DNA of 64,000 nucleotides from Elusimicrobiota bacterium. Lineage in GTDB: Bacteria > Elusimicrobiota > Endomicrobiia > CG1-02-37-114 > XYA2-FULL-39-19. The stretch is from contig JAHIVV010000070.1 of NCBI GenBank assembly GCA_018816525.1, positions 16,208-80,207 of the forward strand. The letters run 5' to 3'. This document shows positions 7,169-64,000 of this stretch, one piece after another. A model generated the notes under the pieces. It made no database searches. It was not told the DNA's origin and saw only the letters and a program-made list of their open reading frames with translations. The position numbers and the translations under genes are program-made. Each line of letters begins with the position of its first letter. Position 1 is the stretch's first letter.

Positions 7169-7171
7169 AGT

Positions 7172-9684: not shown

Positions 9685-9690
9685 TAGCTT

Positions 9691-10838: not shown

Positions 10839-10839
10839 A

Positions 10840-11823: not shown

Positions 11824-12188
11824 TTTTCTTCGGTTTGCGTTTCTCTTTCAATTACGTTTAAGATTTCGTATACTTTGGACGCTTTTTCTACGGTCTCGTC
11901 AAAACCAAACCTTATTTCAGGCACCTTGCGCATTATCACTTCCTCTCCTACGCGCCTGCGGACATATTTTGTCGCATTGGTAAGTATCCTGGTTGAAAGT
12001 TCTTTCTCTTTTTTGTCGCCAAGCACCGAGTAAAACACTTTGGCAAAGGACAAATCATCAGTAAGTTCTACGCCTGCTATAGTTACAAACCCCAAACGGG
12101 GGTCCCTGATTTCTTCCGTTACTATTCTTGAAATTTCTCTCTGTATTAATTTTCCTAATCTGTCTGCGCGTTTATATTGCTGGTTCAT
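11802..12188 (-). CDS. rbfA: Ribosome-binding factor A
   Basis: 128 aa, RbfA KH-like fold (RADRLGKLIQREISRIV…GFVTIAGVELTDDLSFAKVFYSVLG). Confidence 0.9.
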   Translation of the reverse strand: MNQQYKRADRLGKLIQREISRIVTEEIRDPRLGFVTIAGVELTDDLSFAKVFYSVLGDKKEKELSTRILTNATKYVRRRVGEEVIMRKVPEIRFGFDETVEKASKVYEILNVIERETQTEEKCKKKKK

Positions 12189-15560: not shown

Positions 15561-15608
15561 GATTGCTCCTAATGTGGATTAATTGGGTTCATATAAGCGA
15601 ATAAAGCA

Positions 15609-15641
15609 TAAAAAAAGTGGCATGCATATCAGCCACTTTTT
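15609..15641 (-). terminator. Intrinsic terminator hairpin (bidirectional form) downstream of proS / in the nusA leader
   Basis: AAAAGTGGC-atgcatatca-GCCACTTTT, with an A-run 5' and a T-run 3'. On the minus strand it reads hairpin + TTTTTTT. Confidence 0.55.
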
Positions 15642-15692
15642 AATATTCAGTGACATTCAGATAAATAATGATACTATATATTTAAAAGAATA

Positions 15693-17417: not shown

Positions 17418-17427
17418 TTATTAGTCC

Positions 17428-18489: not shown

Positions 18490-18507
18490 TTTTCCGTTTG
18501 CTAATAA

Positions 18508-19569
18508 TCAATACCCGAAGAATTTTTTTGTGAATGTAAACAAGCCGATTCTTTCGAAGTCACTGTAAAATGCAAATACCATCAATAAAACGATAATTGT
18601 CAATCCGATATAATTGGTAGTCTCAATAACTTTATTACTCGCGCGTTTTTTGGTTATCAAACCCTCGATGGTAAAAAACATTATATGCCCGCCGTCAAAA
18701 ATCGGAATAGGCAGAAGATTCATCAATCCTACCATTACGGAAATTCTTCCTATTAATATCAACAGGTTTGAAAATCCCACTTTTGCTGTCTGGGCTATAA
18801 CTTGCGCAATACCGATAGGGCCCGAAACCTCGGGCTTTTCCATCTTTGTTATCCTGTCCCACATATAAACAAAAAATACGATATTTATTTCAATTGTATG
18901 AGCGGCTGATATCAGGAATGATTTTGCCATGCCGACCTTTTCTATCTGAACATCGGGCATAATTCCAATAACCCCGACTTTAAAATCCTTATCCATTTGC
19001 GGCGTAATTTCAAAACTCGAAACTTCATTATGCCTGCGGATTTTTATAACAAGTTTCTTTTGCGCCTGTTTATGTATAATCTCCGCGGCGTCCTGCCAAA
19101 GTTTTATTTTCTGTCCGTTTATAGAGATTATCATATCCCCGGATTTAATGCCGGCTTTAGCAGCAGGATATCCTGCTCTTACTTCGCCAATGACCGGCTT
19201 TTCTGTAGGAACTCCTAGTCCCCAAAAGTAAATGGCAATAAAAAAGAATACGAGTGCCAGAACATAATTCATTAAAGGCCCTGAAGCAACAACCAACACC
19301 CTTTTGTACCAGGGTTTTGCAAAAAATTCCCCGGGATCGCCTTTTGACTCATTATCCATTCCTCCGGCAAGTTTTACCATCCCGCCTAAAGGCACCCAGC
19401 ATATTGCGTATCTGGTTTCACCCACAGTCTTCCCAACAATTTCAGGGCCAAAACCAAATGCAAATTTTTCCACTTTCATCCCGACCATTTTTGCGGAAAC
19501 AAAATGCCCTAATTCATGCAGAAAAATTATTATCCCAAACGTAAATATTACCGCCAAAGCGCCTAACAT
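18508..19569 (-). CDS. rseP: RIP zinc metalloprotease RseP (site-2 protease)
   Basis: HELGHF zinc motif, a PDZ domain and the LDG motif. Start set at the ATG at 19569 (MLGALAVIF…), which is preceded by GGGGAGGAG. This overlaps the dxr stop by 7 nt. Confidence 0.9.
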   Translation of the reverse strand: MLGALAVIFTFGIIIFLHELGHFVSAKMVGMKVEKFAFGFGPEIVGKTVGETRYAICWVPLGGMVKLAGGMDNESKGDPGEFFAKPWYKRVLVVASGPLMNYVLALVFFFIAIYFWGLGVPTEKPVIGEVRAGYPAAKAGIKSGDMIISINGQKIKLWQDAAEIIHKQAQKKLVIKIRRHNEVSSFEITPQMDKDFKVGVIGIMPDVQIEKVGMAKSFLISAAHTIEINIVFFVYMWDRITKMEKPEVSGPIGIAQVIAQTAKVGFSNLLILIGRISVMVGLMNLLPIPIFDGGHIMFFTIEGLITKKRASNKVIETTNYIGLTIIVLLMVFAFYSDFERIGLFTFTKKFFGY

Positions 19570-20726
19570 TGAACTCCTCCCCTTACTCCGGCTTCTCTCC
19601 GTGCCCATCGGTCGGTTTCAAGAATCTCGTCGAGCCCGGGATTTTTTATCATTTTATGCTTATTTAAAACTTTTTCAATTACTATGGGAATATCTGAAAA
19701 CTTTATTTTCTTTTTCAAAAATGCTTCTACGGCCGATTCATTTGCAGCATTAAGGGCAGAGGTCATGGTATGGCCTATTTTTCCGGCATTAAGAGCCAGT
19801 TTTAAGCAGGGGAATTTTTTTATATCAGGCGGATAGAACTCCAGTGTCCTTATAACTTCAAGGTCCAAAGGTTTAATTTTTGTTTTATGCCTTTCAGGGT
19901 AAGTAATGGCGTATTGTATTGAAAGGCGCATATCTGGTTCTGAAAAAAGCCCTATTACTGACCCGTCTATAAATTCAACCAGCGAGTGGATAATTGATTG
20001 CGGATGAATCAGTAATTTAATCTTTTCAAAAGATATATCAAAAAGATAGCGCGCTTCAATTATTTCAAGCCCTTTATTCATAAGCGTGGCTGAATCAATC
20101 GTAATCTTTCTCCCCATTTTCCATCGGGGATGGTTAAGGGCTTGTTCCACTTTTATATGTTCAAAATCAATATCTTTCTTATAGAAAGGCCCTCCTGAAC
20201 CGGTAACTATGAGTTTATCAACGTTCTTTATGTCTTCATTTTTAAGGCATTGAAAAATGGCTGAATGCTCGCTATCGACAGGAATAATTGTAGCCGAATG
20301 CTTCTTCAGCAATCCATTGACTAAATTTCCAGCTATAACGAGAGATTCCTTATTAGCCAGCGCGATTGTTTTATTTGATTTGATTGCTGAAACCAGGGGA
20401 TATATGCCTACAGCGCCCACTACAGAAATTAGTACAATGTCCGCTTCATCCATTCCTGAGAGAGTTTCCAGGCCTTTGTTTGAGTGAAATATTTCTATTT
20501 TTTTTGATATTTTTTCGCGAAGTAGATCAGCATCACCGGGCGAACCTACACATACTGCGGACGGGTTGAACTCTTTAATTTGCCTTTCCAGTAACTCGAT
20601 GTTTGAAAAAGTGGAAAGCCCCGTAACTTTATATTCATCTTTCAGGTGCCTGGCGACATTAAGCGCCTGAATGCCAATGGAACCCGTTGAACCTAAAATA
20701 ACCAAATTTTTCATAATTGAGGTCAT
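19563..20726 (-). CDS. dxr: 1-deoxy-D-xylulose 5-phosphate reductoisomerase
   Basis: ILGSTGSIG NADPH-binding motif and the conserved DXR core. ATGA overlap with the cdsA stop. Confidence 0.95.
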   Translation of the reverse strand: MTSIMKNLVILGSTGSIGIQALNVARHLKDEYKVTGLSTFSNIELLERQIKEFNPSAVCVGSPGDADLLREKISKKIEIFHSNKGLETLSGMDEADIVLISVVGAVGIYPLVSAIKSNKTIALANKESLVIAGNLVNGLLKKHSATIIPVDSEHSAIFQCLKNEDIKNVDKLIVTGSGGPFYKKDIDFEHIKVEQALNHPRWKMGRKITIDSATLMNKGLEIIEARYLFDISFEKIKLLIHPQSIIHSLVEFIDGSVIGLFSEPDMRLSIQYAITYPERHKTKIKPLDLEVIRTLEFYPPDIKKFPCLKLALNAGKIGHTMTSALNAANESAVEAFLKKKIKFSDIPIVIEKVLNKHKMIKNPGLDEILETDRWARREAGVRGGVQC

Positions 20727-21565
20727 TTGTGAAAAATGGTGAGATAATAATAAAAAAACGGCGCGGCAAATATGAAGGAATCAAACCTGTCAAGCATTCC
20801 GCCATGTCCCGGCAAAAGAACATCGGAATCTTTTAAACCCACATCCCTTTTCAAAAGCGATTCGGAAAGATCGGAGATAAATCCGATTACAATAATAAAA
20901 AAACTTACAACGATAACTTCTATTAACTTTAATTCTTTAAGCGCAAATATTTTCCACATTGCCAGGGCAAATATTATACCTATTACAATGCCGCCCAGAG
21001 CGCCTTCTACCGTTTTTTGCGGGCTGATTTTTTCTGCTAATTTCATCCTGCCAAACCTTTTCCCAACCAGATAAGCGCCTGTATCAGCTATCCAAATCAG
21101 CAAAAACAGGAAAAATGAATACTTATTTCCGTTAGGGTTGATATCTCTTAACAATAGTATGTGCCCAAAGGTCCAGGAAATAATGAAAAGGCCGAAAAGA
21201 GTAAGTGCAATCCTTATAATAGACCCGTTTACTTCAGTCCTGTTGGAAAATCCAATACGCAGTATTTCGTAACAAAAAAAAGCGAGTAAAGCCAGCGTGA
21301 AAACTATAGAGGTTAACTGGCTCTGGGCCGGGCTAAGAATTTTTGACCCGTTAAAATATATGGCAAGCATAATCAGCAAACCGAAAATATAACCGTTTGC
21401 TTTTTGCAGGTTGAATTGCGTCCTGTCGATTATGAAAAAATATTCCTGAAGCGAAAAAAGAACAATGATAATTACAAGAATAAAAAAAGGAACATCTCCG
21501 AAATGTATGGCAAGCAGTATAATGGGTATCCCTATAATCGCTGTCAAAAGCCTTGGTAGAATCAT
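20723..21565 (-). CDS. cdsA: Phosphatidate cytidylyltransferase
   Basis: 280 aa, multi-TM. C-terminal CTP-transferase signature (SxxKRxxGxKDSGxxxPGHGGxxDR). Confidence 0.9.
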   Translation of the reverse strand: MILPRLLTAIIGIPIILLAIHFGDVPFFILVIIIVLFSLQEYFFIIDRTQFNLQKANGYIFGLLIMLAIYFNGSKILSPAQSQLTSIVFTLALLAFFCYEILRIGFSNRTEVNGSIIRIALTLFGLFIISWTFGHILLLRDINPNGNKYSFFLFLLIWIADTGAYLVGKRFGRMKLAEKISPQKTVEGALGGIVIGIIFALAMWKIFALKELKLIEVIVVSFFIIVIGFISDLSESLLKRDVGLKDSDVLLPGHGGMLDRFDSFIFAAPFFYYYLTIFHK

Positions 21566-47940: not shown

Positions 47941-48666
47941 TTAGATTGGTTTAGGTATGTAGAGAATTCTGGAGCAATTGTCGCAAATAATCAATGCCTG
48001 ATTTTTTGCAACTTCGTTGATAATCTGAGCCGTCAGTTTTATATGGCAGCTGCCGCAATTTTCATTCTCGATAGAAGTAATTGCCAGCCCGTCTTTTCCC
48101 TTGCTGCGGATATGCTCATACTTTTTAAGGTTAGACGGTGAAACAGTATCCGCTATGGTTTTTCTTTCCTGTTCCAAACCTGTAAATTTATTTTCAAATT
48201 CCTTCTTTTTTTCTTCCAATATTTTAATTTTATCGTTTACTATGCCTTCTTCAATTTTTATTTTATTTTCTTCGTCTTTTACATTTTTATTAAAAGTATC
48301 TATTTCATCCATGGCTTTAAGGATTTCTTCTTCTATCTGGCCTTTTTCCTGCTCGATTTTTGAAATCTGTGATTGCAGGGCCTTGTATTGCTCATTGGTT
48401 TTTACTACATTAAGGTCTGTCTTCTGCTTTTTTATTGCTTCATCTTTGGAGGCAATATCCAGCTCAAGAACTTTATACTTGGCCTGCATTTCTTTGATGT
48501 TTTTCTTTTTTTCTTCAAATCTCTGCTTTATGGCACCAATTTCTTCTTTTTGTTTCTCTATTTCCGCAGGAATAAAAATACATTCTTCCTGGTATCTATC
48601 TAATTCGAGGTCAATTTCCTGAAGCTTAATTAGTAATTCCAGATCCTGATTTAGTTTTTCGTTCAC
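47941..48666 (-). CDS. COG1579-type coiled-coil protein with a C-terminal C4 zinc ribbon
   Basis: 241 aa. Long heptad-rich region, then CGSCHIKL…CDNCSRIL. GTG start with GGGGA RBS. Confidence 0.75.
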   Translation of the reverse strand: MNEKLNQDLELLIKLQEIDLELDRYQEECIFIPAEIEKQKEEIGAIKQRFEEKKKNIKEMQAKYKVLELDIASKDEAIKKQKTDLNVVKTNEQYKALQSQISKIEQEKGQIEEEILKAMDEIDTFNKNVKDEENKIKIEEGIVNDKIKILEEKKKEFENKFTGLEQERKTIADTVSPSNLKKYEHIRSKGKDGLAITSIENENCGSCHIKLTAQIINEVAKNQALIICDNCSRILYIPKPI

Positions 48667-48852: not shown

Positions 48853-48881
48853 ATTATATTCAAAAAAAACCCTGTTGTCAA
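48853..48881 (-). promoter_or_regulatory. Consensus sigma70 promoter TTGACA-N17-TATAAT for the tRNA-Met/tRNA-Val pair
   Basis: Minus strand: TTGACA (48881..48876), 17-nt spacer, TATAAT (48858..48853). The tRNA-Met 5' end lies ~13 nt downstream of the -10. Confidence 0.55.
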
Positions 48882-49484: not shown

Positions 49485-49542
49485 GATTATTTAAAAAATG
49501 ACCCCCATTTGGTAGGAGGTCATCTCTGGGCACAGTGCTAAG

Positions 49543-49586: not shown

Positions 49587-50525
49587 TTAGAAACTATATT
49601 TTAATCCTACTCTCATTGTGTCGCCAAGGTCTCCATAAGGAGCCCAGGTAGCATCAAAACCGAAGGAATCCTTAAGAGTAAACCCGACACCGGCAGAAAT
49701 ACCTGCGGTGCCGCCAGCATCTGCTAAACCTGAATTATACCCAATTCTTACAGGAAGTTTGGTTTTATCCCCAAGTGCAAGGGCATATTCTACTCCAAGA
49801 TTTGCAGTGGAAACGCTGTCGCTGATTCCATAATTAACGTCGAATGCAGCCATAAGTTTCTCAGTTGCCTGGAGTTTTGAACCAATTTTCAAATTCATAG
49901 GAAGCGGGTCTGCAACATCAATAAACTTTATCGTGCCGCCAGCATTCTGCAAAGCCAAACCTAAATCCAGCTTTGGTGAAACTTTGCACAAACAGCCTAG
50001 GTCTGCCGCAAAACTTGAAGCGCTTTTGTCATCAATGGACATATTTATAATCTTCAAATTTAAACCTAATCCTAAACTGTCCGAAAGAACTTTCGAATAA
50101 GCAAGTGTTATGGCTGTATCGCTTTCACCGAATTTCGTTGCGGTTTCAGCAGTAGAGCCGCCGACATAAGCTCCGATATTATCAGTTTTGGGAATGCCTG
50201 TGACTGAAAGCATATTAATCCCAAGCCCGAACGTACCCATCTTTGTAGGCATGCCAAACGCCAAATAATTGTATTTTATATCCTGAAACCAAACCGTATA
50301 GGTCGCAGCCGCTTCAGATTTAGGCAGATAAGCCAAACCTGCTGGATTTGCGCCGATACTGTTGACATCATCAGAAACTGCGCCAAAAGCTCCGCCAAGA
50401 GCAGCCGGCCTGGCTCCGCCGATAATCTTTAAAAACTGGCCTCCTGCAGTACCTTTCCCGCCTGCGAAAGAAATACTTACAACAAAACACACTGCTAAAA
50501 ATCCTAAACTCAGTTTTTTAAACAT
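49587..50525 (-). CDS. Outer-membrane beta-barrel protein, PorV/PorQ-like (FadL/TraF_2-type) family
   Basis: Start at ATG 50525 (MFKKLSLGFLAVCFVVSISFA signal peptide; GGGGGTG RBS). N-terminal hallmark GGARPAALGGAFGAVSDDVNSIGANPAGLA. Alternating beta-strand pattern and a C-terminal …LKYSF. Confidence 0.55.
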   Translation of the reverse strand: MFKKLSLGFLAVCFVVSISFAGGKGTAGGQFLKIIGGARPAALGGAFGAVSDDVNSIGANPAGLAYLPKSEAAATYTVWFQDIKYNYLAFGMPTKMGTFGLGINMLSVTGIPKTDNIGAYVGGSTAETATKFGESDTAITLAYSKVLSDSLGLGLNLKIINMSIDDKSASSFAADLGCLCKVSPKLDLGLALQNAGGTIKFIDVADPLPMNLKIGSKLQATEKLMAAFDVNYGISDSVSTANLGVEYALALGDKTKLPVRIGYNSGLADAGGTAGISAGVGFTLKDSFGFDATWAPYGDLGDTMRVGLKYSF

Positions 50526-53342: not shown

Positions 53343-56300
53343 TTATCTAATTATCGCTAACTTACCTATTTTTTTATCAGTACTGTCTTTTGGATTGGTA
53401 AGCAGGTAAACGTATACGCCGCTGGCTACCTTTTCACCGCTCTTGTTCTTTGTATCCCAGATGAGTGTATCGACGGCAGCGTCATTTGCCTTTACATTAT
53501 CAAATACCAATTCGCCGGCAATATTGAATATTTTAAGCCTTGCTTCAGCAGTAAGTTTTTTGAAAGTAATAGCTACGGCCTGATAGATTGCATCTGCAGT
53601 TAAACTCCCGCCCTTCAAAGGATTTGGGTACACATAAGCATCTTTCATGGTTAGGGCTGCTGCGTCTGCACTTCCACCGCCATTACCACCGCCTGCAACA
53701 TAGAATACTGCAAACTTGGACATATGTTTTACACCCAAGCTTAATGTAAACTTGGACCAGTCAATTGTAGGAGTCCCTGTTGCAGCATCCCATTTTTTAG
53801 TTGTTTCATTGTAATTATACAACTTAAGGTCTGCCTCATTATAGTCTAGAGCCGAAGTTGAAATCTGGATTTTGACAGATATCGGAGTATTTTGTGAAAT
53901 TGTTGCCAAAGGCCCGGACACTAAACGAACCTGCATTTCATAAATGTCGCTTAGCTGAACACCTGGTTTATCCGCACTGAAACATGTGATTGGAGAAGAG
54001 AAAGATTTTCTGGAATATTTGCCGAGTTTGGTTGCACCAACTGTTTCATTATTGTATTTGGCACAGAAAGCTTTTGTGCCGCTTGTTAACGCAACTTCAT
54101 CATCAATTGAACCCGCAGGGACATCTATACCGGATTCATCACCCGAACCAAGAGTAAGGTTTCCTCCTACCATCGGGTTGATAATCTTTTCGCTTCTACC
54201 GTCTTCACCAAGATAAAATTTATATTCCGCTTCGCCGGTCAAACCCTTAGAGCTTGTACCTGTGAATTTAAGCTGAAAGTAACCATTAGTAATTTCCTGA
54301 CCGTTTGGAATGTAAACAAAAAGGAATTCTTTTCTGTTGTCAGCAAATTTTTCTTCTGCGGTCGAAAGCGGCCTTAAAACACCTGAAGTGGTCATTGTTG
54401 TAACTACTTCAGTGATGCTCTCTTCCTTTAAAGGCTCAGTGGCATAACCGTAGATATAGTAAAGATCAATTTCATTGGGAAGATTGGCAATATCTATCAA
54501 GTCTTCGCTAGAACCCAATGGAATATTTATTCTTGTAAAACCAATATCCTTGAATGCTTTGATAGGCAGAGTTAATTTAAATGACTTCGTTTCAAAGTTC
54601 GGAGCATACTGCGTGTAAATAACATTTTTTGTTTCTGAAGAAACAGCCACGGTAACGATACCCGGATCAACAAAAACTTTATTAAACTCCGGTTGTACAA
54701 GCACAATATAATACTGCACGCCCGGTTCTACACCGTAAATATCATATCTGTCAACTTCTAAGGTTACAGGGTTGATTGTTAGCGCGCCGAATACTATTTT
54801 TGAAAAATCTTTTGTAGCAGCGACTACGATAGAAGCATCAGATTGCGATATTTTAGTCCCTACCTGGGTCCTGATGGTCCCGCCGACTGATAACCCGGCT
54901 GTAAGAGCGAGATTACCGACATCCAATGTTTTATTAGCTTCTACAGTAATGTCCTGCCTGTAGGTTGCAAATCCTTTTGCAAATACTTTTATTGAATATT
55001 TGCCTGCTACAAGCCCTTTTATTTCAAAGGAACCGTCAACATTTGTTATTATCTTCATGCCTGACATCGGGTCGCCGCTGGAAAGGTCTGACTGCGACTG
55101 CAGTAACACCAGCGCCGCAGGATAATCTTCAAACTGCAATCCTTCAATCTGGAACGGCATAATAAGCTTTTCACCACCGGGAGTAACTACTGTACCCTGA
55201 ACTTTTGCATTTGTTTCTTCCAGGAAAACTGAGGCAATACCGCTTTTAATTACCGAAGCAGCTGTTGTTATATCCTTTACAACCAATATTTTTACACCGT
55301 ATTTTTTCTGAACATCGGTGAACTTTGTAGGATCATCCGGGCGCACATTTACTTTAACTTCCCAGCTTTTAATCGATGCATTTAACCCTCTGAGTGAAAA
55401 AATACCCTTATCGTCTGAAGTTGCATTTATTTTATTGCCTTGTTTGTCTTGCACACTTGAAGGATAGGCCCTGACTTGAACTCCTGATAGGGCAACATTT
55501 CCTTTGCCAAATACTTTTCCTAAAATTGAAGTTCCATTTTTAAGTTTTATTGTTCCAACGTCAACATCAGACTGGCTCTCGGGAACCGTAATACCAGCTT
55601 TTGAGGTAACCATATAGTTTACTTTTGCGCCAATTTCAGGGGTAATCTTTAACATGTAAGTACCGCCGGGAAGGTTAGGCAGAGTAAACTGGCCCAAACT
55701 GGAAGTTTCTGAAGAAATCGTAACTCCTGGCTGATTTGTAGCTCTGTAAGAACCATCAACAAAAGGATAAGCCCAGCATTCCACAAGCACATTCTGGCTT
55801 ACGGCTTTACCGGTCTCATCAAAAAGAGAACCGATAATTGAAGCGCCTTTTTTCAATTCAATCTGGGGTAAGGCTAACGCTGAAGCAGAAACTTCGATGC
55901 TATTACTGTAAACTTTATAATTTTGCGCCTGAACAACGATTATAAATTTCCCAGGAGATACTTTTTCAAAACCAAAGGATTTTGAAGTAAGATTTACACT
56001 ATTTGCGGATGAGAAATCAACAGAAGTTGTTGCAATAGTTTCACCGGTAGAAGGTTTTCTGAGTGAAACTGATATAGTTTCTGAAACACCAGCTTGAGGC
56101 CTTTTGATTGAACCGGTTAAACTTACACCGGCAGACATGGTGAAAACAACTTCTTTCGTTTCATTTGCTCCCAAGAGCTGGAAAGTCTCCGAAGGAATAC
56201 AGGCATAAGGGTAGTTTACTGCCTTCTCATTGCCGCTAGAATAGAGATCCCTGTTAACTAAAGGATAAGCGTAGTAAACACCTTGTTCAAGGCCGTTTGC

Positions 56301-59300
56301 TACAAACCTTATGAAAGTACCATTTGCATCAGAGCCCCTATCAGAAAATGCAGCCGTAACAGATATTTCTTTTACGCCAGGCATTTTCATTTGAACTTCC
56401 GGCATAAATCCATATTTTTGCTGCATTGAAGAAACCAGGTCTTCTGCAACCTTTCTCATAAATAATGATTGGACGCGCGCCAATCCAAAACCCATACGGT
56501 TTTGTGACTGAACACCAGTATATGTGGTAGTTTTTGCATAAATATCATCGAGCATTGCTGTAGTCCCGTAAACCTTGATATACAAAGTTGAAGCGGGTTT
56601 TAGGTCAATATTCAGGTAAGTTGTTGTTCCGCTTTGGGTATTCAGTAAAATCCACGAAGTTCCGGAATTTCCTGATGGAATACCAAATAGATTTCCTTCG
56701 CCAGGAGGTGTGGCAAATTCAGATGTCCAAATAACCGCTTGGCCAGTAGGAAGATCTGTTACAGTGAAATTTCCGTTAGCATCAGGCACTGCAAACTTGG
56801 GCTTTCCGCCATCTGCCTTTGGGTAAGCTATCATTACAGTAATCTTGTTCATAACTATGGTCTTTCCCGAATTGTTTATTATTTTGCCGCGTAATGTACC
56901 TGTTGGGTTTTTAAGCGTTATAGTGCTAGGATTGACTGTATCAGTTAATCCAACAAACACTGTTCTATGCTCAGCGTCAGGAGTTACATCAACATCACCA
57001 ATTCCCTCAAGGTCAATTTCGTAAGTCCCGGAAGAAAGGCCTCTTACCTTATAGTTAGCAATTGACGGGAAACTGATGGTTGTTATGTAAACCTGATTCC
57101 AATTCCATGAATTATCTTGCATGGACCTCAACCCTAACTGTATAGGAACACCTGCCGGGGGCATGTTCATCATGCCATTGGGCCAGCCGCCATTATTATC
57201 GCCGTTATTGTTGTTATTAGACATCAGGGCGGTTATGTCATCCTGTATGATTATTGCGCCGGTTAAAGTAACTCCGAAGGAAAGATTAATTGTCCCCAAA
57301 TCAGGGTTGCCTGAATAAAAATCAATTTTACTGCACGCAAATGTACCTGCGGATTCTACATAGAGATGGTAAGACGTGTTTTTCAGAAGGCCGTCGAGAG
57401 TAAATTCAGCGGCTGTGGCCCCATTAAGCAGATCGTTTTGCTGGAAACCAACACAAGTACCGGTTCTGCTTTTTCTGTCAAAAGATTCAACACTAAGATT
57501 AATCCAGAGATTATTCCTTCCGGTCTCATCAAGAAACTCCTGTGCTGATGCAGTTGAAAGAAAGAGACTCGGCAAGCTTACAATACCTCTTGCCTGAACT
57601 GATTTCACTAAACTGATATCTTTTGTAACACCCGCACTTTTTATTTCTACTGTTTCATCTTGTGAGGCATATCCGGGAACTCTGATTTTCATGCTATAAA
57701 TCCCGGGTTCAAGAGAAATGTTATAAGAAGCTGTTATACTTGATAAATATAGAGTCGAAGAAAGAGGTATTCTGAAATCACTTCTGTACCAGCCGGGGCC
57801 GTTCATATTCCACACTTCAACGTTTCCCCAAAGGTCAAAAATCATCCCGCCACCGCCATAAGGATTTGCCATTTCGCCGGCTTTTGGAGGATTTGGCAAA
57901 TTAACCAACCCTGATAATGTAATTCCCTGGCTAAGCTCAATTGTCCCGGCATTGGTTGCGCCACCGGCAGTTACTTTGATTCCCGGGTTAGGTGAATTGC
58001 CCAACTGCGCCATAATATAACCATCTTTTGAAATTTCAAGATTAAAATCTCCGGGCCTTAATCCGGCAACAACAAAACTTCCGTCTTTGCCTGAAAAAGC
58101 CATGCTTCCGCCCATAGGGCCGTTTGCCTGAATTCTAGCACCTGGAAGAGGGGCATCATTTGCGTCAGTAACTAAACCATAGATCACTGAAGTTTTTATA
58201 GTAATCTGTATGCTTGTTGAAAAATTTGGTACTGCGTCTACATCCTGCTGTTGGTCAAAAACCATAAGTGATGCGGCGAAGTTGTCATTCTTTAAGGGGT
58301 TTCCTGCATTGTCTCTTCCTTCCCAACTCATAAGAAAATCCTGAGTAAAGAAATCTGTCCCATCCCAAGTCATGGACCAGCCATCAGTCCAAAAATCCAG
58401 GGTTGAATCAAACAATGACGCGAATTGACCGTATTGCTCTTGACTGATAGGGCCGATTAATTTTGAATAATCAGGCCTCTGCATATCGATGAAATCAGTA
58501 GGATTTTTCTTCATAAACCTTCTGTTGTCTGTTGTGTAAATAAAAATGTTGTTATTCATCGGCTGGAATCCGGCTTTACCATTTGTATCAACAACAAACT
58601 TCATTATTGCGCCATTTTCACCAGACGGCATATTTGTTTTAACCTTGTAAGTGAAAGAAATCTGGGTTCGATCGTCTATTCCATCGTTATCAGGGCTGAT
58701 GATTGTCGGAGAAATTTTTAGGTTTGCAATTGAAACTTCCGGTTTCGGGGCCAGGTTGATATCAAAATATTTTTCTGTGGATGCATCCGAACCTATAAAA
58801 GATTGCCCCTGGTAGGATATTTTATAACCGGCTTTATTTGCTTTTAACTGATAGTTGTACGGATTGCCTGCATAGGAAACTTTAACATTCATAGGGGCGA
58901 ATTCAAAATTATAATCCTCAGGGGTGGTCCCGGAGTAAGAACCATTTGAGGTAACACTTGCGACGAATATATAACTATTAAAATCTCCGCCATTGCCATA
59001 TTCCCCCGGGTCCATCAAAGAAATAGCAACATCGCCAAAAGGAGTAGCCATATCTGTGTTTAAGTGCACCCTTCCTTTAATGGTAACCATAACAGTACTA
59101 GCCTGAACATCCTGCGAGGCTTGTTGCTGAAGGGTAACATCAACTCTTTGCTGCATATTCCCGCTGTTAAGGTTATACGGCCCCAGGATGATTCTGGGTT
59201 CACTGCCCATATCAGGCATATTGTTATTATTTAAATCTGCAAATACTTCTACATAATATCCATTGCCATCAGGAAGACTCAGCAGGTCATAATATCCAGC

Positions 59301-60140
59301 GCCATTTCTATTGAATCCGGCGCCTATCTGTTGGTAAATACCATTCAGGTCTCCAAATCCTGCTCTTGCATAAATTTTTGTGGTCGAAGCGCCGTTGAAA
59401 TTTATATTACCAAAAATCTTATTGGGGCCCGTTTGATTATCGCCGCCATTAACCGTCCCAAAAAAACTCATTCCAGACAAGTCATAACCGGCAATAACCG
59501 GATTGTGTGAATATGGTTCAAAATTATAACCCGCGAGTGCCGCTGTAATCATATATGGGCCATTTGCTAACCCGGTAAATGAATACGCCCCGCCATCATC
59601 AGTTTTTTCATATTTATTTACAGTGCCTGACAAAGATACTGGAACACCGGCCAAGGGACCTGAAACACCTGAAATGGTTCCGGAAATAGTAAATCCGCCC
59701 GCCATATAATTCCATGCCGCAATAAAAGTTACAGCGCCATGGCTTGTTGGTGTAGCGCTTTGAATAAGAATTTTAACTGGGATATTATCTGTGGTTTTAA
59801 ATGTATAGGCATGTCCCTGCAAAGGCTGCGCAGTTGCAGTTGCGCCTGAGGGATCATAAGTGTTTATGCCTTCAAAAGCTGCCGACGAAGCGACAATACC
59901 CAAATCTTTAATACCGTCTTCATGTTTTACTTCCAAGAAATCGTAAGTTGTATTGAAAAACAAGTGCAAATCAGATGAAGCTGTCGACCATGGCTGAAAT
60001 GTTAATATGTCTGGAAGCGTGTCAAAATCTACTGCCTGGTTATCACTTGCGAGTGTAACCGGGTCGGCATTCACCATAGCTGTTGAAAAGATACCTACGA
60101 AAAATACGACAGACATTACGGAAAATAGTTTTTTAAACAT
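53343..60140 (-). CDS. Giant secreted multi-domain surface protein: repeated CarboxypepD_reg-like domains, internal FlgD-Ig-like motif, C-terminal T9SS-type sorting domain
   Basis: 2265 aa from ATG 60140 (MFKKLFSVMSVVFFVGIFSTAMVNA; AGGAGGG RBS). At least 6 CarboxypepD_reg-like units (e.g. GLVTDANDAPLPGARIQANG…GKDGSFVVAGLRPGDFNLEISKDGY; GKVFGKGNVALSGVQVRAY…DDKGIFSLRGL). Internal ISPDNDGIDDRT. C-terminus YPNPLKGG…LKIFNIAGELVF…SGVYVYLL…KLAIIR. The ORF-track 5' extension (60141..60242) overlaps the promoter and is not coding. Confidence 0.85.
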   Translation of the reverse strand: MFKKLFSVMSVVFFVGIFSTAMVNADPVTLASDNQAVDFDTLPDILTFQPWSTASSDLHLFFNTTYDFLEVKHEDGIKDLGIVASSAAFEGINTYDPSGATATAQPLQGHAYTFKTTDNIPVKILIQSATPTSHGAVTFIAAWNYMAGGFTISGTISGVSGPLAGVPVSLSGTVNKYEKTDDGGAYSFTGLANGPYMITAALAGYNFEPYSHNPVIAGYDLSGMSFFGTVNGGDNQTGPNKIFGNINFNGASTTKIYARAGFGDLNGIYQQIGAGFNRNGAGYYDLLSLPDGNGYYVEVFADLNNNNMPDMGSEPRIILGPYNLNSGNMQQRVDVTLQQQASQDVQASTVMVTIKGRVHLNTDMATPFGDVAISLMDPGEYGNGGDFNSYIFVASVTSNGSYSGTTPEDYNFEFAPMNVKVSYAGNPYNYQLKANKAGYKISYQGQSFIGSDASTEKYFDINLAPKPEVSIANLKISPTIISPDNDGIDDRTQISFTYKVKTNMPSGENGAIMKFVVDTNGKAGFQPMNNNIFIYTTDNRRFMKKNPTDFIDMQRPDYSKLIGPISQEQYGQFASLFDSTLDFWTDGWSMTWDGTDFFTQDFLMSWEGRDNAGNPLKNDNFAASLMVFDQQQDVDAVPNFSTSIQITIKTSVIYGLVTDANDAPLPGARIQANGPMGGSMAFSGKDGSFVVAGLRPGDFNLEISKDGYIMAQLGNSPNPGIKVTAGGATNAGTIELSQGITLSGLVNLPNPPKAGEMANPYGGGGMIFDLWGNVEVWNMNGPGWYRSDFRIPLSSTLYLSSITASYNISLEPGIYSMKIRVPGYASQDETVEIKSAGVTKDISLVKSVQARGIVSLPSLFLSTASAQEFLDETGRNNLWINLSVESFDRKSRTGTCVGFQQNDLLNGATAAEFTLDGLLKNTSYHLYVESAGTFACSKIDFYSGNPDLGTINLSFGVTLTGAIIIQDDITALMSNNNNNGDNNGGWPNGMMNMPPAGVPIQLGLRSMQDNSWNWNQVYITTISFPSIANYKVRGLSSGTYEIDLEGIGDVDVTPDAEHRTVFVGLTDTVNPSTITLKNPTGTLRGKIINNSGKTIVMNKITVMIAYPKADGGKPKFAVPDANGNFTVTDLPTGQAVIWTSEFATPPGEGNLFGIPSGNSGTSWILLNTQSGTTTYLNIDLKPASTLYIKVYGTTAMLDDIYAKTTTYTGVQSQNRMGFGLARVQSLFMRKVAEDLVSSMQQKYGFMPEVQMKMPGVKEISVTAAFSDRGSDANGTFIRFVANGLEQGVYYAYPLVNRDLYSSGNEKAVNYPYACIPSETFQLLGANETKEVVFTMSAGVSLTGSIKRPQAGVSETISVSLRKPSTGETIATTSVDFSSANSVNLTSKSFGFEKVSPGKFIIVVQAQNYKVYSNSIEVSASALALPQIELKKGASIIGSLFDETGKAVSQNVLVECWAYPFVDGSYRATNQPGVTISSETSSLGQFTLPNLPGGTYMLKITPEIGAKVNYMVTSKAGITVPESQSDVDVGTIKLKNGTSILGKVFGKGNVALSGVQVRAYPSSVQDKQGNKINATSDDKGIFSLRGLNASIKSWEVKVNVRPDDPTKFTDVQKKYGVKILVVKDITTAASVIKSGIASVFLEETNAKVQGTVVTPGGEKLIMPFQIEGLQFEDYPAALVLLQSQSDLSSGDPMSGMKIITNVDGSFEIKGLVAGKYSIKVFAKGFATYRQDITVEANKTLDVGNLALTAGLSVGGTIRTQVGTKISQSDASIVVAATKDFSKIVFGALTINPVTLEVDRYDIYGVEPGVQYYIVLVQPEFNKVFVDPGIVTVAVSSETKNVIYTQYAPNFETKSFKLTLPIKAFKDIGFTRINIPLGSSEDLIDIANLPNEIDLYYIYGYATEPLKEESITEVVTTMTTSGVLRPLSTAEEKFADNRKEFLFVYIPNGQEITNGYFQLKFTGTSSKGLTGEAEYKFYLGEDGRSEKIINPMVGGNLTLGSGDESGIDVPAGSIDDEVALTSGTKAFCAKYNNETVGATKLGKYSRKSFSSPITCFSADKPGVQLSDIYEMQVRLVSGPLATISQNTPISVKIQISTSALDYNEADLKLYNYNETTKKWDAATGTPTIDWSKFTLSLGVKHMSKFAVFYVAGGGNGGGSADAAALTMKDAYVYPNPLKGGSLTADAIYQAVAITFKKLTAEARLKIFNIAGELVFDNVKANDAAVDTLIWDTKNKSGEKVASGVYVYLLTNPKDSTDKKIGKLAIIR

Positions 60141-60243
60141 TTTTTCCCTCCTAAAATAAGATTGATTTAATCCAGGATATAGATTAGTTTGGTTTTTTTG
60201 CGAGTTAAATACCGGTGTGTTTTTGTTAATCATGTCTGCCATT

Positions 60244-60272
60244 ATTATAACCTGCTTTTCTTATTCTGTCAA
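60244..60272 (-). promoter_or_regulatory. Perfect-consensus sigma70 promoter TTGACA-N17-TATAAT upstream of the giant gene (~97-nt leader)
   Basis: Minus strand: TTGACA (60272..60267), 17-nt spacer, TATAAT (60249..60244). A short inverted repeat (TGTCAC…GTGTTGACA) overlaps the -35. Confidence 0.55.
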
Positions 60273-60294
60273 CACAGTGTGACAAAAATCACTT

Positions 60295-60798
60295 TTATAT
60301 TTTTTCCGTTTGCGCGCTATTTGTATCAAGAATCGAATTGGACTGCCCGAAACCATCATCAATTATTTCCCGCGCTTTCTGGTCAGTCACCCAGTCACTT
60401 CCATTTACAACAAACATATACTGGTATCTTCCGGGCCGCAGGTTCATTTCAAGCAACCACTTATCGCCATTTTTAATAAGTTTATTTGCGTTTTTATCCC
60501 ACTTATTAAAATCGCCTACAATAGAAATTGTTTCGGCATTCCGGTTTATTACGACAAATTTCACTTTTACCTTATTTATAGTATCCATTTTGAAGAAAAG
60601 CGATATGCCGATTATCCATAATGCTGCAATTGCCAAACTCCATCTTAATACAAAAAAAGAAAACCCTTCTGTTTGTCTTGGTTTTTCCAGAAGTGAAAGC
60701 CTTTGAATAATTTTGGAGGTTAAATATGCGGGTGCGTTTTGTTTTTTTAGATAGGAAGGCAGTATACTTAGTTTCTTTTCGATTTCTGGATTTGTCAT
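60295..60798 (-). CDS. Single-pass membrane protein with extracytoplasmic CBM48 / AMPK-beta glycogen-binding-like domain; candidate anti-sigma factor
   Basis: 167 aa. ~45-aa cytoplasmic N-terminus, a TM segment (FSFFVLRWSLAIAALWIIGISLFF), then VKFVVINRNAETISIVGDFNKWDKNANKLIKNGDKWLLEMNLRPGRYQYMFVVNGSDWVTD. Lies immediately downstream of the ECF sigma gene. AGGGAGG RBS. Confidence 0.5.
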   Translation of the reverse strand: MTNPEIEKKLSILPSYLKKQNAPAYLTSKIIQRLSLLEKPRQTEGFSFFVLRWSLAIAALWIIGISLFFKMDTINKVKVKFVVINRNAETISIVGDFNKWDKNANKLIKNGDKWLLEMNLRPGRYQYMFVVNGSDWVTDQKAREIIDDGFGQSNSILDTNSAQTEKI

Positions 60799-60887: not shown

Positions 60888-61451
60888 CTATTCAGGAAGG
60901 TTTTTTGATAATATTTTTTGCGCTCTATGTATACGGGTCTTCACGGTACCAAGCGGTTTTTGTATTATATTTGATATTTCTTCATAAGAAAGATTCTCCA
61001 GATATCTCAATATAATTACAATCCGGTATTTTTCAGGAAGAACATTTATAGCGGCTAATATTCTTTCAGCTTCTTCCTTATCAAAGAGCAAAGTTTCCGG
61101 GTTCCCTGACTCATCACTAAACTGTACCCTGATTTCAGATTCTTCTAAAAATATTGATGCATCAATTGAAGCGGTCAGATTTTTTTTCTTCCGAAGCATA
61201 TCTCTTGCAGCGTTTACTGCTATTGAAAACAGCCAATTTTTAAAGGACCGCTCAATATTGTACGCTTTTATATTTTTATAAGCCCTTACAAAAGATTCGC
61301 TGGTAATATCTTCTGCGTCGTTGCAATTACCGCAAAACTTAAATACAAGATTGTAAACAGAATTCTTGTATTCCTCTATCAGGAATTTATATGAATCCTG
61401 ATTCCCTGAAAGGATTTCATTAATATATACCTTTATCTTTTGTTCATCCAT
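60888..61451 (-). CDS. ECF-type sigma-70 family RNA polymerase sigma factor
   Basis: Region 2 (…FVRAYKNIKAYNIERSFKNWLFSIAVNAARD) and region 4 (…YRIVIILRYLENLSYEEISNIIQKPLGTVKTRIHRA). ATG at 61451 overlaps the upstream gene's TGA by 1 nt. Confidence 0.88.
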   Translation of the reverse strand: MDEQKIKVYINEILSGNQDSYKFLIEEYKNSVYNLVFKFCGNCNDAEDITSESFVRAYKNIKAYNIERSFKNWLFSIAVNAARDMLRKKKNLTASIDASIFLEESEIRVQFSDESGNPETLLFDKEEAERILAAINVLPEKYRIVIILRYLENLSYEEISNIIQKPLGTVKTRIHRAQKILSKNLPE

Positions 61452-62200
61452 CAATGAGTTCCTTCCAAAAGCCTTTTATCCTTATCATATTCTTTCATTT
61501 CTTCTTTTATTTCCTTCAATATCTTTTTTCTGAACTGGCCCTTTATTTCAGACGGACTCTTTCCTGATTTTATACCGCTTAATATTATTTCCTGAGCTTC
61601 ATCAAATTCAATTTTTTTTGTAAATGCGAAAATAAATAATTCTGCAGCCTCATTAATTTGTTTTATCGAAAAATCTTTTTCCAGCAAAGACACAAATACT
61701 GCAGCGGCATATTTGCGCTCGACATTTTTTTCTTTAAGCAGAATAAACAAATTTAACAAATCAAGTGTTTTATCAATGTTCACATTTTTATATTTTGCTT
61801 CCCTGGTAAGCTCATTAAAACTATTTATAGTAAGCCCCCTGTCAAGATACTCCGCAAGCAATTTAATCTTTTCTTTATTTACATATTTGGCTTCGAAACG
61901 CGAGTTTAAAAGTTCCCTGGAAATTCTTAGCGTAAGAGTTTTTTCTTTTATCACTTCTGAAAGAATTTCAAAAGGAACATTCTTAGCTATCCCCTCCCGG
62001 GTTCTTAAAGACAAATAATCTTCAGGTAATTTCTCGCTTATAGCGAGGTTAATAAGCGAATCTATTTGGGTTATTTGGCCCGGGGTGAATTGGGATTTTT
62101 CGGATAGAAAATTCTTAATTTCACTTGCACTTGCATTTGCATGAATTGCCGTAAAAAATAAAACGACCCATAAAAAGACCCTAATCATTATTTTGTTCAT
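61451..62200 (-). CDS. Secreted alpha-helical protein of unknown function, translationally coupled to the ECF sigma gene
   Basis: Start at ATG 62200 (MNKIMIRVFLWVVLFFTAIHANASA signal peptide; GGAGG RBS). Lys/Glu-rich helical sequence. The stop overlaps the sigma start. Confidence 0.5.
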   Translation of the reverse strand: MNKIMIRVFLWVVLFFTAIHANASASEIKNFLSEKSQFTPGQITQIDSLINLAISEKLPEDYLSLRTREGIAKNVPFEILSEVIKEKTLTLRISRELLNSRFEAKYVNKEKIKLLAEYLDRGLTINSFNELTREAKYKNVNIDKTLDLLNLFILLKEKNVERKYAAAVFVSLLEKDFSIKQINEAAELFIFAFTKKIEFDEAQEIILSGIKSGKSPSEIKGQFRKKILKEIKEEMKEYDKDKRLLEGTH

Positions 62201-62255: not shown

Positions 62256-62954
62256 TTATTGGTTAAGAAGATCTAGAAATTTTATTAACTGGATATTTTT
62301 TTCGTTAAGGTAAGATTTCAGCTGGGGATTGCAGCAAGCCGTGAGTTCATATTCTCTCCAAAGCTCGCCATAACCCGGATGAGTGGCAAGTTCTGCCACG
62401 GAAAAATTTTCATCAATATTACCCCAATACCAGCCTTCAATAAAATGTTCAGGAAATATAATCTGATTTTGCTCAATTAACGCTTTATGCCTGTTGAAAT
62501 CGCCGTTGTGAGAGAAAAATCTCCTGGCAAACCTGATTATTTTAATGCCTTGTTCCCTGGCAACGTCAACGACAACGGGAATAAGTTCATTTCTTAAGTG
62601 AACATGATGGCGGCTTGTTATGTGAGGAGGGTTAATTCCTGCATTTTTAAGCCTGGCAATCTGACTTCTGATTTCATTTCTTACTTGCTCAACCGGAGCC
62701 GGTTCGGTTACCCAATTGTAAACAACTCCTTTTGTCTGGTCAACATTGAAAAACTTATCAAGTTCTATATGGATACCTACTTCAAGATTTGGGTTTTCTT
62801 TAGCTAATCTTATAGCGTCATCAAACGCAGACGAGTAATCAGAAGCTATTATACTCGTGCTGGTAACAACACCGTTTTTATGAGCAGAGATTATCCCCTG
62901 ATTGATTTTAGCTGTTAACCCGAAATCGTCTGCGTTTATTATTATCTTTTTCAT
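62256..62954 (-). CDS. YdjC/ChbG-family carbohydrate deacetylase
   Basis: MKKIIINADDFGLT…GVHIEL… YdjC-family metal-site motifs. Start at the only ATG (62954). The ORF-track start is TTG. Confidence 0.8.
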   Translation of the reverse strand: MKKIIINADDFGLTAKINQGIISAHKNGVVTSTSIIASDYSSAFDDAIRLAKENPNLEVGIHIELDKFFNVDQTKGVVYNWVTEPAPVEQVRNEIRSQIARLKNAGINPPHITSRHHVHLRNELIPVVVDVAREQGIKIIRFARRFFSHNGDFNRHKALIEQNQIIFPEHFIEGWYWGNIDENFSVAELATHPGYGELWREYELTACCNPQLKSYLNEKNIQLIKFLDLLNQ

Positions 62955-63042
62955 GCCAATCTCATTATATATCGAGTTCCGCAAAACTTCAAGTGTTATT
63001 TTAAAAATACTGTTGTTGTTAAAAACATGTAACAGCAAAAAA

Positions 63043-64000
63043 CTACAATAGTTTTTTTGAAATTAATGTTTCTGCTATCTGAACTGCGTTAAGCGCAGCG
63101 CCTTTTCTGACGTTGTCTGCTACAACCCATAAGTCCAGCGCGTTGGCGCAGGAAACATCTTCCCTAATTCTACCGACAAAGGTTTCATCCTTGCCGCCAA
63201 TAGCAAGAGGCATTGGGTATATGCTTTTTTCCGGCAAATCCATAAGCACTACTCCCGGAGCCTGCGAAAGGATTTCCCTGGCCTGCGCGGCAGTAATTTT
63301 TTTCTCAAATTCTACATTTATAGATTCTGAATGCGCTGAAAAAACTGGAACCCTTACACAAGTGGCGGTTATTTTCAGCCCCGGAGCATCAAGTATTTTC
63401 CTGGTTTCTTTCACCATTTTAATTTCTTCTTTGTAATAGTTAGAAAAAGCAGGGTCTTCGCTTATGCCGCTTATTTGAGGAATAACATTAAAAGCAATCT
63501 GGTGAGGATAGGCAGCGGGTTTTGTTTTCACTACTTTAATATCGGGATACGAATCCGCGGTTTCTTTGGACTGTTCATAAAGCTCCCGAACACCTGCTCT
63601 GCCGGTACCTGATACAGATTGGTATGTCGAAACAACTATTCTTTTTATTTTGCTATAACGATGTAACGGCGCTAAAGCAACCACCATTTGTATGGTAGAG
63701 CAATTTGGGTTTGCAATAAATTTTTTGTCTTTACTTAAATGGTGAGCATTAACCTCAGGAACTACCAGCGGACAGCGGCCATCCATTCTAAAATCGTCGC
63801 CATTATCAATAACATAGGCGCCGGATTCCACAGCTTTCCAACCCCACTGTTTTGAAGCGCCTTTTGAACCTTCAGTTCCTGCAAATAGCACGACATCAAG
63901 CCCCTTAAAAGAGTTATCATTTGCTATTTCAACTTTATATTTTTTTCCGTTGATTTCTTCTTCTCTTTCGCGAGTAGCAAATATCTTTATTTCCCTTGCA
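63043..64000 (-). CDS. asd: Aspartate-semialdehyde dehydrogenase (5'-partial; N-terminus beyond window end)
   Basis: …VLFAGTEGSKGASKQWGW…NPNCSTIQMVVALAPLH…, the ASADH catalytic Cys region. The frame stays open to position 64000 (…AREIKIFATREREEEINGKKYKVEIANDNSFKGLDV…). Confidence 0.92.
   Translation of the reverse strand, partial: AREIKIFATREREEEINGKKYKVEIANDNSFKGLDVVLFAGTEGSKGASKQWGWKAVESGAYVIDNGDDFRMDGRCPLVVPEVNAHHLSKDKKFIANPNCSTIQMVVALAPLHRYSKIKRIVVSTYQSVSGTGRAGVRELYEQSKETADSYPDIKVVKTKPAAYPHQIAFNVIPQISGISEDPAFSNYYKEEIKMVKETRKILDAPGLKITATCVRVPVFSAHSESINVEFEKKITAAQAREILSQAPGVVLMDLPEKSIYPMPLAIGGKDETFVGRIREDVSCANALDLWVVADNVRKGAALNAVQIAETLISKKLL

Follow-up and report, generated by a model that had tools for sequence, protein, structure and literature searches.

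A giant secreted β-sandwich protein with a PorZ/PorU-like sorting domain is encoded with a PorV/PorQ-family barrel in a conserved Elusimicrobiota gene module

How is a secreted protein of more than two thousand residues held on the surface of a bacterium whose phylum lies outside the range in which the matching secretion machinery has been documented? The question is raised by one gene in the 64,000-nucleotide stretch of Elusimicrobiota contig JAHIVV010000070.1 (assembly GCA_018816525.1) that was analysed here and is called the window below. Its product, termed the giant protein, is identical to NCBI entry MBU0952538.1 from an Elusimicrobiota metagenome-assembled genome (MAG), where it is called ‘carboxypeptidase regulatory-like domain-containing protein’, and a C-terminal sorting domain (CTD) of T9SS type (T9SS, type IX secretion system) stands at its end. 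The T9SS has been reported to be confined to Bacteroidetes or the FCB group (PMC4793230), and Elusimicrobiota stand outside the phyla with a documented T9SS. We find that the giant protein is the cargo of a conserved four-gene module found only in Elusimicrobiota, comprising the cargo, a FecR-domain protein, a 16-stranded outer-membrane β-barrel and a barrel of the PorV/PorQ family. The reading that we favour, with confidence and doubt in about equal measure, is that it represents a Sec-exported, highly expressed adhesin or surface-layer rod that is held at the outer membrane by its cognate PorQ-like barrel. The features discussed are collected in Table 1.

The CTD gives the first indication of how such a protein might be retained. 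It passes the type A model TIGR04183 (27.5 bits, cut-off 23) and CHU_C (27.9–36.5 bits, cut-off 27, the whole-protein value of 27.9 being marginal), but stays below the cut-off of 27 for the Pfam family Por_Secre_tail, PF18962 (15.4 bits with the whole protein and 23.7 with a fragment). A preliminary description of the gene, made from the sequence alone, had called this region a T9SS-type sorting domain; the TIGR04183 score upholds that assignment and the PF18962 score does not, and the subtype turns out to be PorZ/PorU-like. The other check that it had named, the type B model TIGR04131, gave no match to the giant protein at E ≤ 1. Against the C terminus of the PorZ equivalog model the CTD reaches 55.8–63.5 bits (the cut-off of 260 applies to the whole protein), and against the PorU model 31 bits, where TIGR04183 gives 27–30 bits. 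Eleven CTDs, taken from the gene family of the giant protein and from module relatives, could be aligned to a consensus, YPNP..KIYNIAGELVR..WDGxNDSGExxASGVYI..KKFAIIR; all eleven match the PorZ C terminus (best E 1.3e-18), ten the PorU C terminus and nine TIGR04183, and a single one matches TIGR04131, with an E value of 0.007. When the CTD profile was compared with the PDB, PorZ (5m11, E 2.5e-6), FlgD and PorU (6za2, E 5e-5) were recovered, whereas 8glk and 8glj, in which type-A substrate CTDs were caught on the translocon, were reached only at E 0.13–0.67. The nearest database relatives of the profile are proteins of Elusimicrobia or Endomicrobia, for which NCBI uses the names ‘T9SS type A sorting domain-containing’ and ‘FlgD immunoglobulin-like domain containing’; proteins of Zixibacteria and Krumholzibacteria come next. 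PorZ and PorU are T9SS proteins whose CTDs are left uncleaved, with the barrel PorQ keeping PorZ at the cell surface (PMC10947112). Judged by sequence, the CTD of the giant protein resembles this retained subtype more than it does ordinary T9SS cargo tags. The sequence thereby leans away from removal of the CTD by PorU, and such cleavage may therefore not occur.

A candidate receptor for the CTD is encoded nearby. Downstream of the giant gene and in its orientation come three more, with 42, 92 and 28–37 nt between successive genes, and the last of them encodes a member of the PorV/PorQ family, scoring 163.9 bits against NF033709 (cut-off 90), 102 against PorQ (cut-off 220) and 66 against PorV (cut-off 250). 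By these scores it appears closer to PorQ than to PorV, and its sole PDB relative is PorV (6h3i). Neither this barrel nor the second barrel encoded beside it matches PorP/SprF. The second barrel has 16 strands in a confident AlphaFold2 model (predicted local distance difference test, pLDDT, 91.9; predicted template modelling score, pTM, 0.85; 69-sequence alignment), in which the barrel starts directly after the signal helix and neither a periplasmic domain, a POTRA domain, a TonB-dependent plug nor a signalling domain is present. A Foldseek search of the PDB with this model returned generic porins, FadL, PgaA, BcsC and Occ channels at template modelling scores (TM-scores) of 0.35–0.48. The family counts 74 clusters, all at E ≤ 1e-64, and all of those with a name come from Elusimicrobia; precomputed Pfam domains are absent from it apart from one weak OMP_b-brl match, and we regard it as a new outer-membrane barrel family without a Pfam model. 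The remaining gene, directly downstream of the giant one, encodes a protein with a FecR domain (PF04773, residues 60–154, 58.2 bits against a cut-off of 24) followed by about 300 conserved C-terminal residues that have no Pfam or PDB relative; it carries a signal peptide and no transmembrane or cytoplasmic domain. PDB sequence searches with the 16-stranded barrel and the FecR-like protein found no relatives of either.

The four genes travel together. About ten independent Elusimicrobiota loci contain the module, with varying gene order and cargo, and a genome scan for the 16-stranded barrel family, with one genome per species, returned 10 loci, all of them in MAGs of Elusimicrobia or Endomicrobia. 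The giant protein has few full-length homologues (P0002–P0007, 51–26% identity), and the window and the related loci L001, L002, L003 and L004 have a common gene set within differing flanks. In L009 (P0027) the order is FecR–barrel–cargo–PorVQ (PorVQ standing for the PorV/PorQ-family barrel) and the cargo is 23% identical over its last 1000 residues; its partners match those of the window with E values of 1e-41 (FecR), 5e-40 (16-stranded barrel) and 2.5e-41 (PorVQ). The cargo in L015 and L019 is a different protein of about 1600 residues. L015 carries, at 4322–21124, two tandem FecR–barrel pairs and then two cargo–PorVQ pairs, and its second cargo (17570–20182, about 820–870 residues) is a Sortilin-Vps10/BNR propeller with the same type of CTD, from which it follows that the module serves unrelated cargos.

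The association of CTD and PorVQ could also be seen when hidden Markov models (HMMs) of the four components were run on about 460 kb, taking in all open reading frames (ORFs) of 20 loci and of the window. Wherever the contig reaches far enough, a PorVQ gene accompanies each CTD-bearing ORF in the cluster, and there are no orphans either way. In P0007 (L005, 10001–14905) and P0021 (L007, 1508–7060) the CTD is replaced by a Gly-rich stretch, a Cys, a transmembrane helix and a basic tail, and FecR, 16-stranded barrel and PorVQ are all absent from their neighbourhoods; the CTD therefore co-varies with the module. The tails of these two proteins look like an exosortase- or rhombosortase-type sorting signal, and no NCBIfam sorting-signal model matches them; P0007 adjoins a type II secretion/pilus cluster and P0021 a Pom-family barrel. 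Two further observations on related loci may be recorded here. L003 carries two small retropepsin-like genes (Asp_protease_2, 20704–21498) at the position of the 16-stranded barrel and a third (8769–9194) upstream of its giant gene, and in L004 (167–262, the same as L011) four tandem 24-nt copies of TAACGAGCCTAAAGGCTCTATTCC, each with an internal inverted repeat, stand just upstream of the giant orthologue.

What, then, is the object that would be held by the barrel? Pfam assigns CarboxypepD_reg (PF13620) to six stretches of the giant protein (E 2.9e-42, 143.3 bits against a gathering threshold of 32.3), which a scan of ten overlapping fragments placed at about residues 151–231, 653–736, 806–837, 1082–1135, 1469–1524 and 1693–1747; the overlapping families CarbopepD_reg_2, SpaA, SdrD_B, PEGA, fn3_3 and NOMO, which have the same fold, match as well. 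In the same fragment scan residues 231–650, 840–1080, 1150–1440 and 1750–2160 were without a family match. Weaker, divergent repeats were located at about residues 910–955, 1005–1078, 1388–1430 and 1538–1595 with probabilities of 84–96% when family sub-alignments were compared by hhalign with two good repeats, an approach that outperformed a seed HMM built on five repeats, with which few additional copies were detected. The count of at least six repeats that had been proposed from the sequence is borne out by the six Pfam stretches and these weaker copies. Tandem repeats at the DNA level are absent from the gene, and the repeat array is therefore old. The variable N-terminal region (residues 26–230) can be aligned only to P0002 and P0003, and the core common to all family members starts at the SPDNDGIDD motif (residues 482–490). 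This motif, singled out in the preliminary description, is conserved in the family, but the FlgD-Ig-like assignment given there is less secure: the Pfam fragment scan returned nothing at E ≤ 0.1 for the domain, FlgD matches at about residues 600–640 are weak (E about 0.06), and secondary matches of the CTD profile fall at the equivalent position in orthologues. At the other end of the array, the region preceding the CTD (residues 1750–2165) has 60 relatives among 1.84 billion representative proteins, always near the C terminus of large proteins.

An AlphaFold2 model of residues 1066–2265, the structural check that had been suggested for this protein, is almost wholly β-strand, with the CTD forming a seven-stranded sandwich at its end (mean pLDDT 71, pTM 0.52, 781 of 1200 residues at pLDDT ≥ 70, from a 10-sequence alignment). 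The sole predicted helical element in this otherwise all-β model is an insert within the repeat array (residues 1194–1252; 56385–56561, minus strand), which is made up of a pair of long helices, modelled with low to moderate confidence, and which the family alignment shows to be conserved. Foldseek placed the Bacillus anthracis TIE protein, PitA, BcpA, RrgB, SdrD B domains and the MpIBP ice adhesin on top, with alpha-2-macroglobulin/C3 MG domains and an archaeal S-layer also among its matches, all of them multi-domain β-sandwich proteins. The whole-family profile found NOMO2 (9c7v, E 2.9e-12) as its best PDB match, with cellulosomal scaffoldin modules, the transthyretin-like domain of carboxypeptidase D, FlgD and the PorZ C terminus among the others. 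With moderate confidence, the CarboxypepD_reg repeats are predicted to fold as transthyretin-like or Ig-like β-sandwiches, and the giant protein can be described as a rod of roughly 15 or more such domains. No enzyme domain was detected by Pfam on the ten fragments, NCBIfam, the family profile against the PDB or Foldseek, in keeping with the earlier remark that no catalytic motif is visible. S-layer families are not matched either in Pfam or NCBIfam; as hints of an S-layer, the strong conserved promoter described below, the acidic isoelectric point and the low Cys content are only suggestive.

We envisage the following course of events. After export to the periplasm, the CTD would be recognised by the cognate PorQ-like barrel of the same operon. 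It would then be kept rather than removed, and a non-covalent complex between CTD and barrel would tether the rod to the outer membrane, as PorQ does with PorZ; the assignment of both recognition and retention to one barrel draws on the analogy with PorQ–PorZ and with type B cargos and their PorP/SprF partners. A second outer-membrane and periplasmic unit could consist of the FecR-like protein and the 16-stranded barrel; it might assist passage or assembly of the cargo or report on it, and the exposed rod would serve as an adhesin or surface-layer component.

Several points weigh against this proposal. L003 has no 16-stranded barrel within the fetched locus, the divergence of CTD and PorVQ is only weakly correlated between pairs (rho 0.29, p 0.05) and this correlation is confounded by phylogeny, the module barrel, with 102 bits against PorQ, falls short of the equivalog cut-off of 220, and the AlphaFold2 confidence for the giant protein is moderate. 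The ordinary T9SS route may also apply, if these genomes encode SprA/Sov and PorKLMN. The giant protein would then be a conventional type-A cargo, translocated by a full T9SS encoded elsewhere, cleaved by PorU and either attached to lipopolysaccharide or released, with neighbours that are accessory or unrelated. Such an origin would explain a TIGR04183 score above the cut-off, and it agrees with the names ‘T9SS type A’ and ‘FlgD Ig-like’ that the NCBI annotation pipeline (PGAP) gives to Elusimicrobiota relatives in a profile that grades into Zixibacteria and Krumholzibacteria. We nevertheless regard it as doubtful. No T9SS core gene is present in the 64-kb window or in the 10-kb flanks of the related loci, where an NCBIfam scan of the large flanking ORFs returned only housekeeping and signalling genes, and a literature search found no paper linking Elusimicrobia or Elusimicrobiota with a T9SS; the reported confinement cited above speaks against this route as well. 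Furthermore, type A cargos normally share one PorV (PMC12618676), whereas here each cargo has a barrel gene of its own, and the CTD of the giant protein is closest to the uncleaved tags of PorZ and PorU.

The module might instead be an autonomous and so far undescribed system for export and anchoring at the outer membrane, in which the 16-stranded barrel and the FecR-like protein provide the conduit or assembly function and the PorQ-like barrel the anchor, with no SprA-type translocon. The strict linkage of the four genes through changes of order, cargo and flanks speaks for this idea, as do the one-to-one numbers of FecR–barrel and cargo–PorVQ pairs in L015 the restriction to Elusimicrobiota of a barrel family that has no Pfam model and counts 74 clusters, all at E ≤ 1e-64, and the position of the phylum beyond the documented T9SS range. 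We consider it quite unlikely all the same. The 16-stranded barrel is devoid of a POTRA or any other periplasmic domain and resembles generic porins, FadL, PgaA and BcsC only, at the low TM-scores given above; a monomeric pore of 16 strands could pass unfolded chains only, an energy source is not evident, and L003 does without the barrel locally. The more general claim, that an Elusimicrobiota four-gene cassette both exports and anchors giant surface proteins without a SprA/PorKLMN machine, seems to us a similarly long shot; the T9SS attachment complex might have its evolutionary precursor, or else a minimal relative, in such a cassette.

The start of the gene bears on both export and expression. 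The stop-to-stop frame (53343–60260, the longest on the minus strand) has its first ATG at 60242, which was rejected as the start since it directly follows the −10 hexamer of the promoter and has no Shine–Dalgarno sequence. The start is the ATG at 60140, which is preceded by AGGAGG (60152–60147), and the product opens with MFKKLFSVMSVVFFVGIFSTAMVNA followed by DP. Looking up the exact sequence on contigs returned nothing, either for this 2265-residue form or for a 2299-residue one, and the identity with MBU0952538.1 emerged from the search for homologues. The signal peptide that had been claimed earlier thus spans residues 1–25, and it is the sole hydrophobic segment, the hydropathy scan having found none beyond it. 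The mature protein has a mass of 241 kDa, an isoelectric point of 5.0 and 0.3% Cys.

The promoter matches the sigma-70 consensus at all 12 positions, where, for 14 kb of this base composition, about 0.02 such perfect promoters are expected (by calculation). The consensus is matched just as fully in L001, before the giant gene, and in L002, before the whole seven-gene cluster. The palindrome GTGATTTTTGTCAC beside it recurs at 9844–9857 in L001 and 7981–7994 in L002, again 5–6 nt upstream of the −35 hexamer; in the window, L001 and L002 the composite of palindrome and promoter occurs at this position only, and the window holds two such palindromes in its 64 kb. Together with AGGAGG and a leader of about 100 nt, promoter and palindrome point to a highly expressed but regulated gene, which would fit an abundant surface protein. 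No promoter of the extracytoplasmic function (ECF) type was found before the giant gene when the region was inspected by eye, and the earlier statement that the gene has a sigma-70 rather than an ECF-type promoter stands.

An ECF sigma gene had been placed just upstream of the giant gene; it does lie upstream, but between the two comes the gene for a membrane protein that has one transmembrane pass and a CBM48 domain in the periplasm. The L001 orthologue of this CBM48 protein (9252–9839) carries an N-terminal HxxxCxxC anti-sigma motif that the window copy lacks. The window protein is 28 residues shorter than the L001 orthologue, and the 89-nt gap after the sigma gene encodes no HxxxCxxC in any frame. 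The module is often preceded by this trio of genes, for an ECF sigma factor, a CBM48 anti-sigma-like protein and a secreted protein of about 250 residues. One could imagine that the FecR-like protein, the 16-stranded barrel, the CBM48 protein and the ECF sigma factor are the parts of a split surface-signalling system, responding to the state of the envelope or to a glycan outside the cell and controlling the cargo operon, without any part in export. The locus does encode an ECF sigma factor, a FecR domain and an anti-sigma-like transmembrane protein whose CBM48 domain is periplasmic, the L001 orthologue has its zinc-finger anti-sigma motif, and in L019 the sigma/CBM48 pair accompanies the module despite another cargo and order. 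We think such a system very unlikely, however: a sigma-70 consensus promoter of its own precedes the giant gene; in L009, L015, L018 and L020 the module includes FecR-like and barrel genes but has neither sigma nor CBM48 genes beside it; the FecR-like protein carries a signal peptide with neither a transmembrane nor a cytoplasmic domain; and a TonB-dependent plug or signalling domain is missing from the barrel.

The rest of the window is of a different character. Positions 1–49500 and 62256–63891 hold housekeeping genes, including ftsK, pnp, infB, nusA, proS, ispG, rseP-like, dxr and RnfC-like genes, uvrB, a dcw/mur cluster with rsmH and ftsI, spoVG, asd and ydjC, and the order asd–ydjC–module–spoVG–mraZ is common to the window and L001. 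A second perfect 12/12 promoter, TTGACA-17-TATAAT, is found at 48853–48881 on the minus strand, upstream of a CT398-like coiled-coil/zinc-ribbon gene (47941–48666).

Table 1 Features of the module, the giant protein and the upstream genes in the window (aa, amino acids; AF2, AlphaFold2)
Feature	Position	Strand	Basis or remark
Conserved secreted protein, about 250 aa	61451..62221	-	first gene of regulatory trio
ECF sigma factor	60888..61454	-	
Single-pass membrane protein with periplasmic AMPK1_CBM/CBM48 domain, putative anti-sigma factor	60295..60798	-	
Palindrome (GTGA-N6-TCAC), putative CRP/FNR-type operator	60279..60292	-	5-6 nt upstream of -35 hexamer
Perfect sigma-70 promoter, TTGACA-17-TATAAT, 12/12 positions	60244..60272	-	consensus scan
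Giant cargo gene, 2265 aa + stop	53343..60140	-	secreted β-sandwich chain with CTD
Sec signal peptide, aa 1-25	60066..60140	-	read from sequence; only segment with Kyte-Doolittle hydropathy >1.6
First CarboxypepD_reg domain, aa 151-231, within variable N-terminal region aa 26-230	59448..59690	-	Pfam fragments
Internal domain, ISPDNDGIDD (aa 482-490) to W-EGRDNAGNPL (about aa 600-640)	58206..58709	-	possibly FlgD-Ig-like with insertion
Array of about 10-11 CarboxypepD_reg/transthyretin-like β-sandwich repeats, aa 650-1750	54891..58193	-	Pfam, hhalign, AF2
Conserved pre-CTD region, aa 1750-2165	53646..54893	-	all-β, no Pfam family
CTD, aa 2170-2265, seven-strand β-sandwich, preceded by GGGNGGG linker	53346..53633	-	Pfam, NCBIfam, PDB profile, AF2
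Secreted FecR-domain protein, 474 aa, MBU0952537.1	51876..53300	-	Pfam FecR
Outer-membrane β-barrel, 406 aa, 16 strands, MBU0952536.1	50563..51783	-	no Pfam/NCBIfam match; AF2
PorV/PorQ-family outer-membrane barrel, 312 aa, MBU0952535.1, putative cognate receptor/anchor for CTD	49587..50525	-	NCBIfam
Terminator-like hairpin + T-run after last module gene	49502..49518	-	consensus scan

Taken alone, the giant protein is an ordinary large repeat adhesin that had already received a generic annotation. What is new is a cargo–barrel pairing module of the T9SS type, with two uncharacterised but obligatory partners to which no function has been assigned anywhere, in an unexpected phylum. It indicates that, outside the described T9SS range, the recognition logic of CTD and PorV/PorQ barrel occurs as a portable pair, one cargo with one barrel, and it offers a handle on how CTDs are matched to their barrels. 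The module also opens the question of whether T9SS-type sorting works without a SprA translocon, and points to what decorates the surfaces of Elusimicrobiota. Many members of this phylum are symbionts or ultra-small groundwater bacteria, and their surfaces have, to our knowledge, remained unstudied.

Individual features of the locus are found in a variety of known systems. The joint presence of genes for an ECF sigma factor, a FecR (PF04773) domain and an outer-membrane barrel recalls FecI–FecR–FecA. In that comparison, however, the FecR-like protein is soluble or secreted and has no anti-sigma domain, a distinct membrane protein, the one with CBM48, takes the anti-sigma position, and in place of a TonB-dependent transducer there is a plain 16-stranded barrel. 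The rod itself is most similar by sequence to NOMO and the transthyretin-like rods of carboxypeptidase D, which supply the best PDB matches of its family, and by fold to the B-repeat arrays of Gram-positive pilins and MSCRAMM proteins. Unlike these, it belongs to a Gram-negative outer membrane and carries a CTD, so that its logic of secretion and anchoring is a different one.

Nearer to hand are the type A (TIGR04183) adhesins and S-layer proteins of Bacteroidota, with which the giant protein shares a signal peptide, a long β-sandwich array and a CTD of about 95 residues that passes TIGR04183. It differs from them in falling below the PF18962 cut-off, in its weak similarity to 8glj and 8glk and in coming from a phylum outside the T9SS range. 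For cargos with a type B CTD, cognate pairs of cargo and shuttle genes are known, in which the barrel recognises the CTD of the cargo and fixes its final location (PMC12618676; PMC9143113). The arrangement in Flavobacterium johnsoniae and in the PG1035–PorP pair of P. gingivalis, where a big adhesin-like cargo adjoins the gene of a dedicated CTD-recognising barrel, has a parallel here in the gene layout, although the CTD of the giant protein is not of type B and the module barrel belongs to the PorV/PorQ rather than the PorP/SprF family.

The comparison with PorZ–PorQ and PorU–PorV of Porphyromonas gingivalis bears on retention. Outside its CTD the giant protein is no homologue of PorZ and consists of β-sandwich repeats instead of β-propellers, the FecR-like protein and the 16-stranded barrel have no counterpart in that system, each Elusimicrobiota cargo comes with its own barrel, and the module barrel, from an Elusimicrobiota host, scores under the PorQ equivalog cut-off. 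On the other hand, the CTDs of the giant protein and of the module cargos are most similar to the C termini of PorZ and PorU, a barrel of the PorV/PorQ family that scores best against PorQ is encoded in the operon of the giant protein itself, and PorZ likewise retains its CTD and is held at the cell surface by PorQ (PMC10947112).

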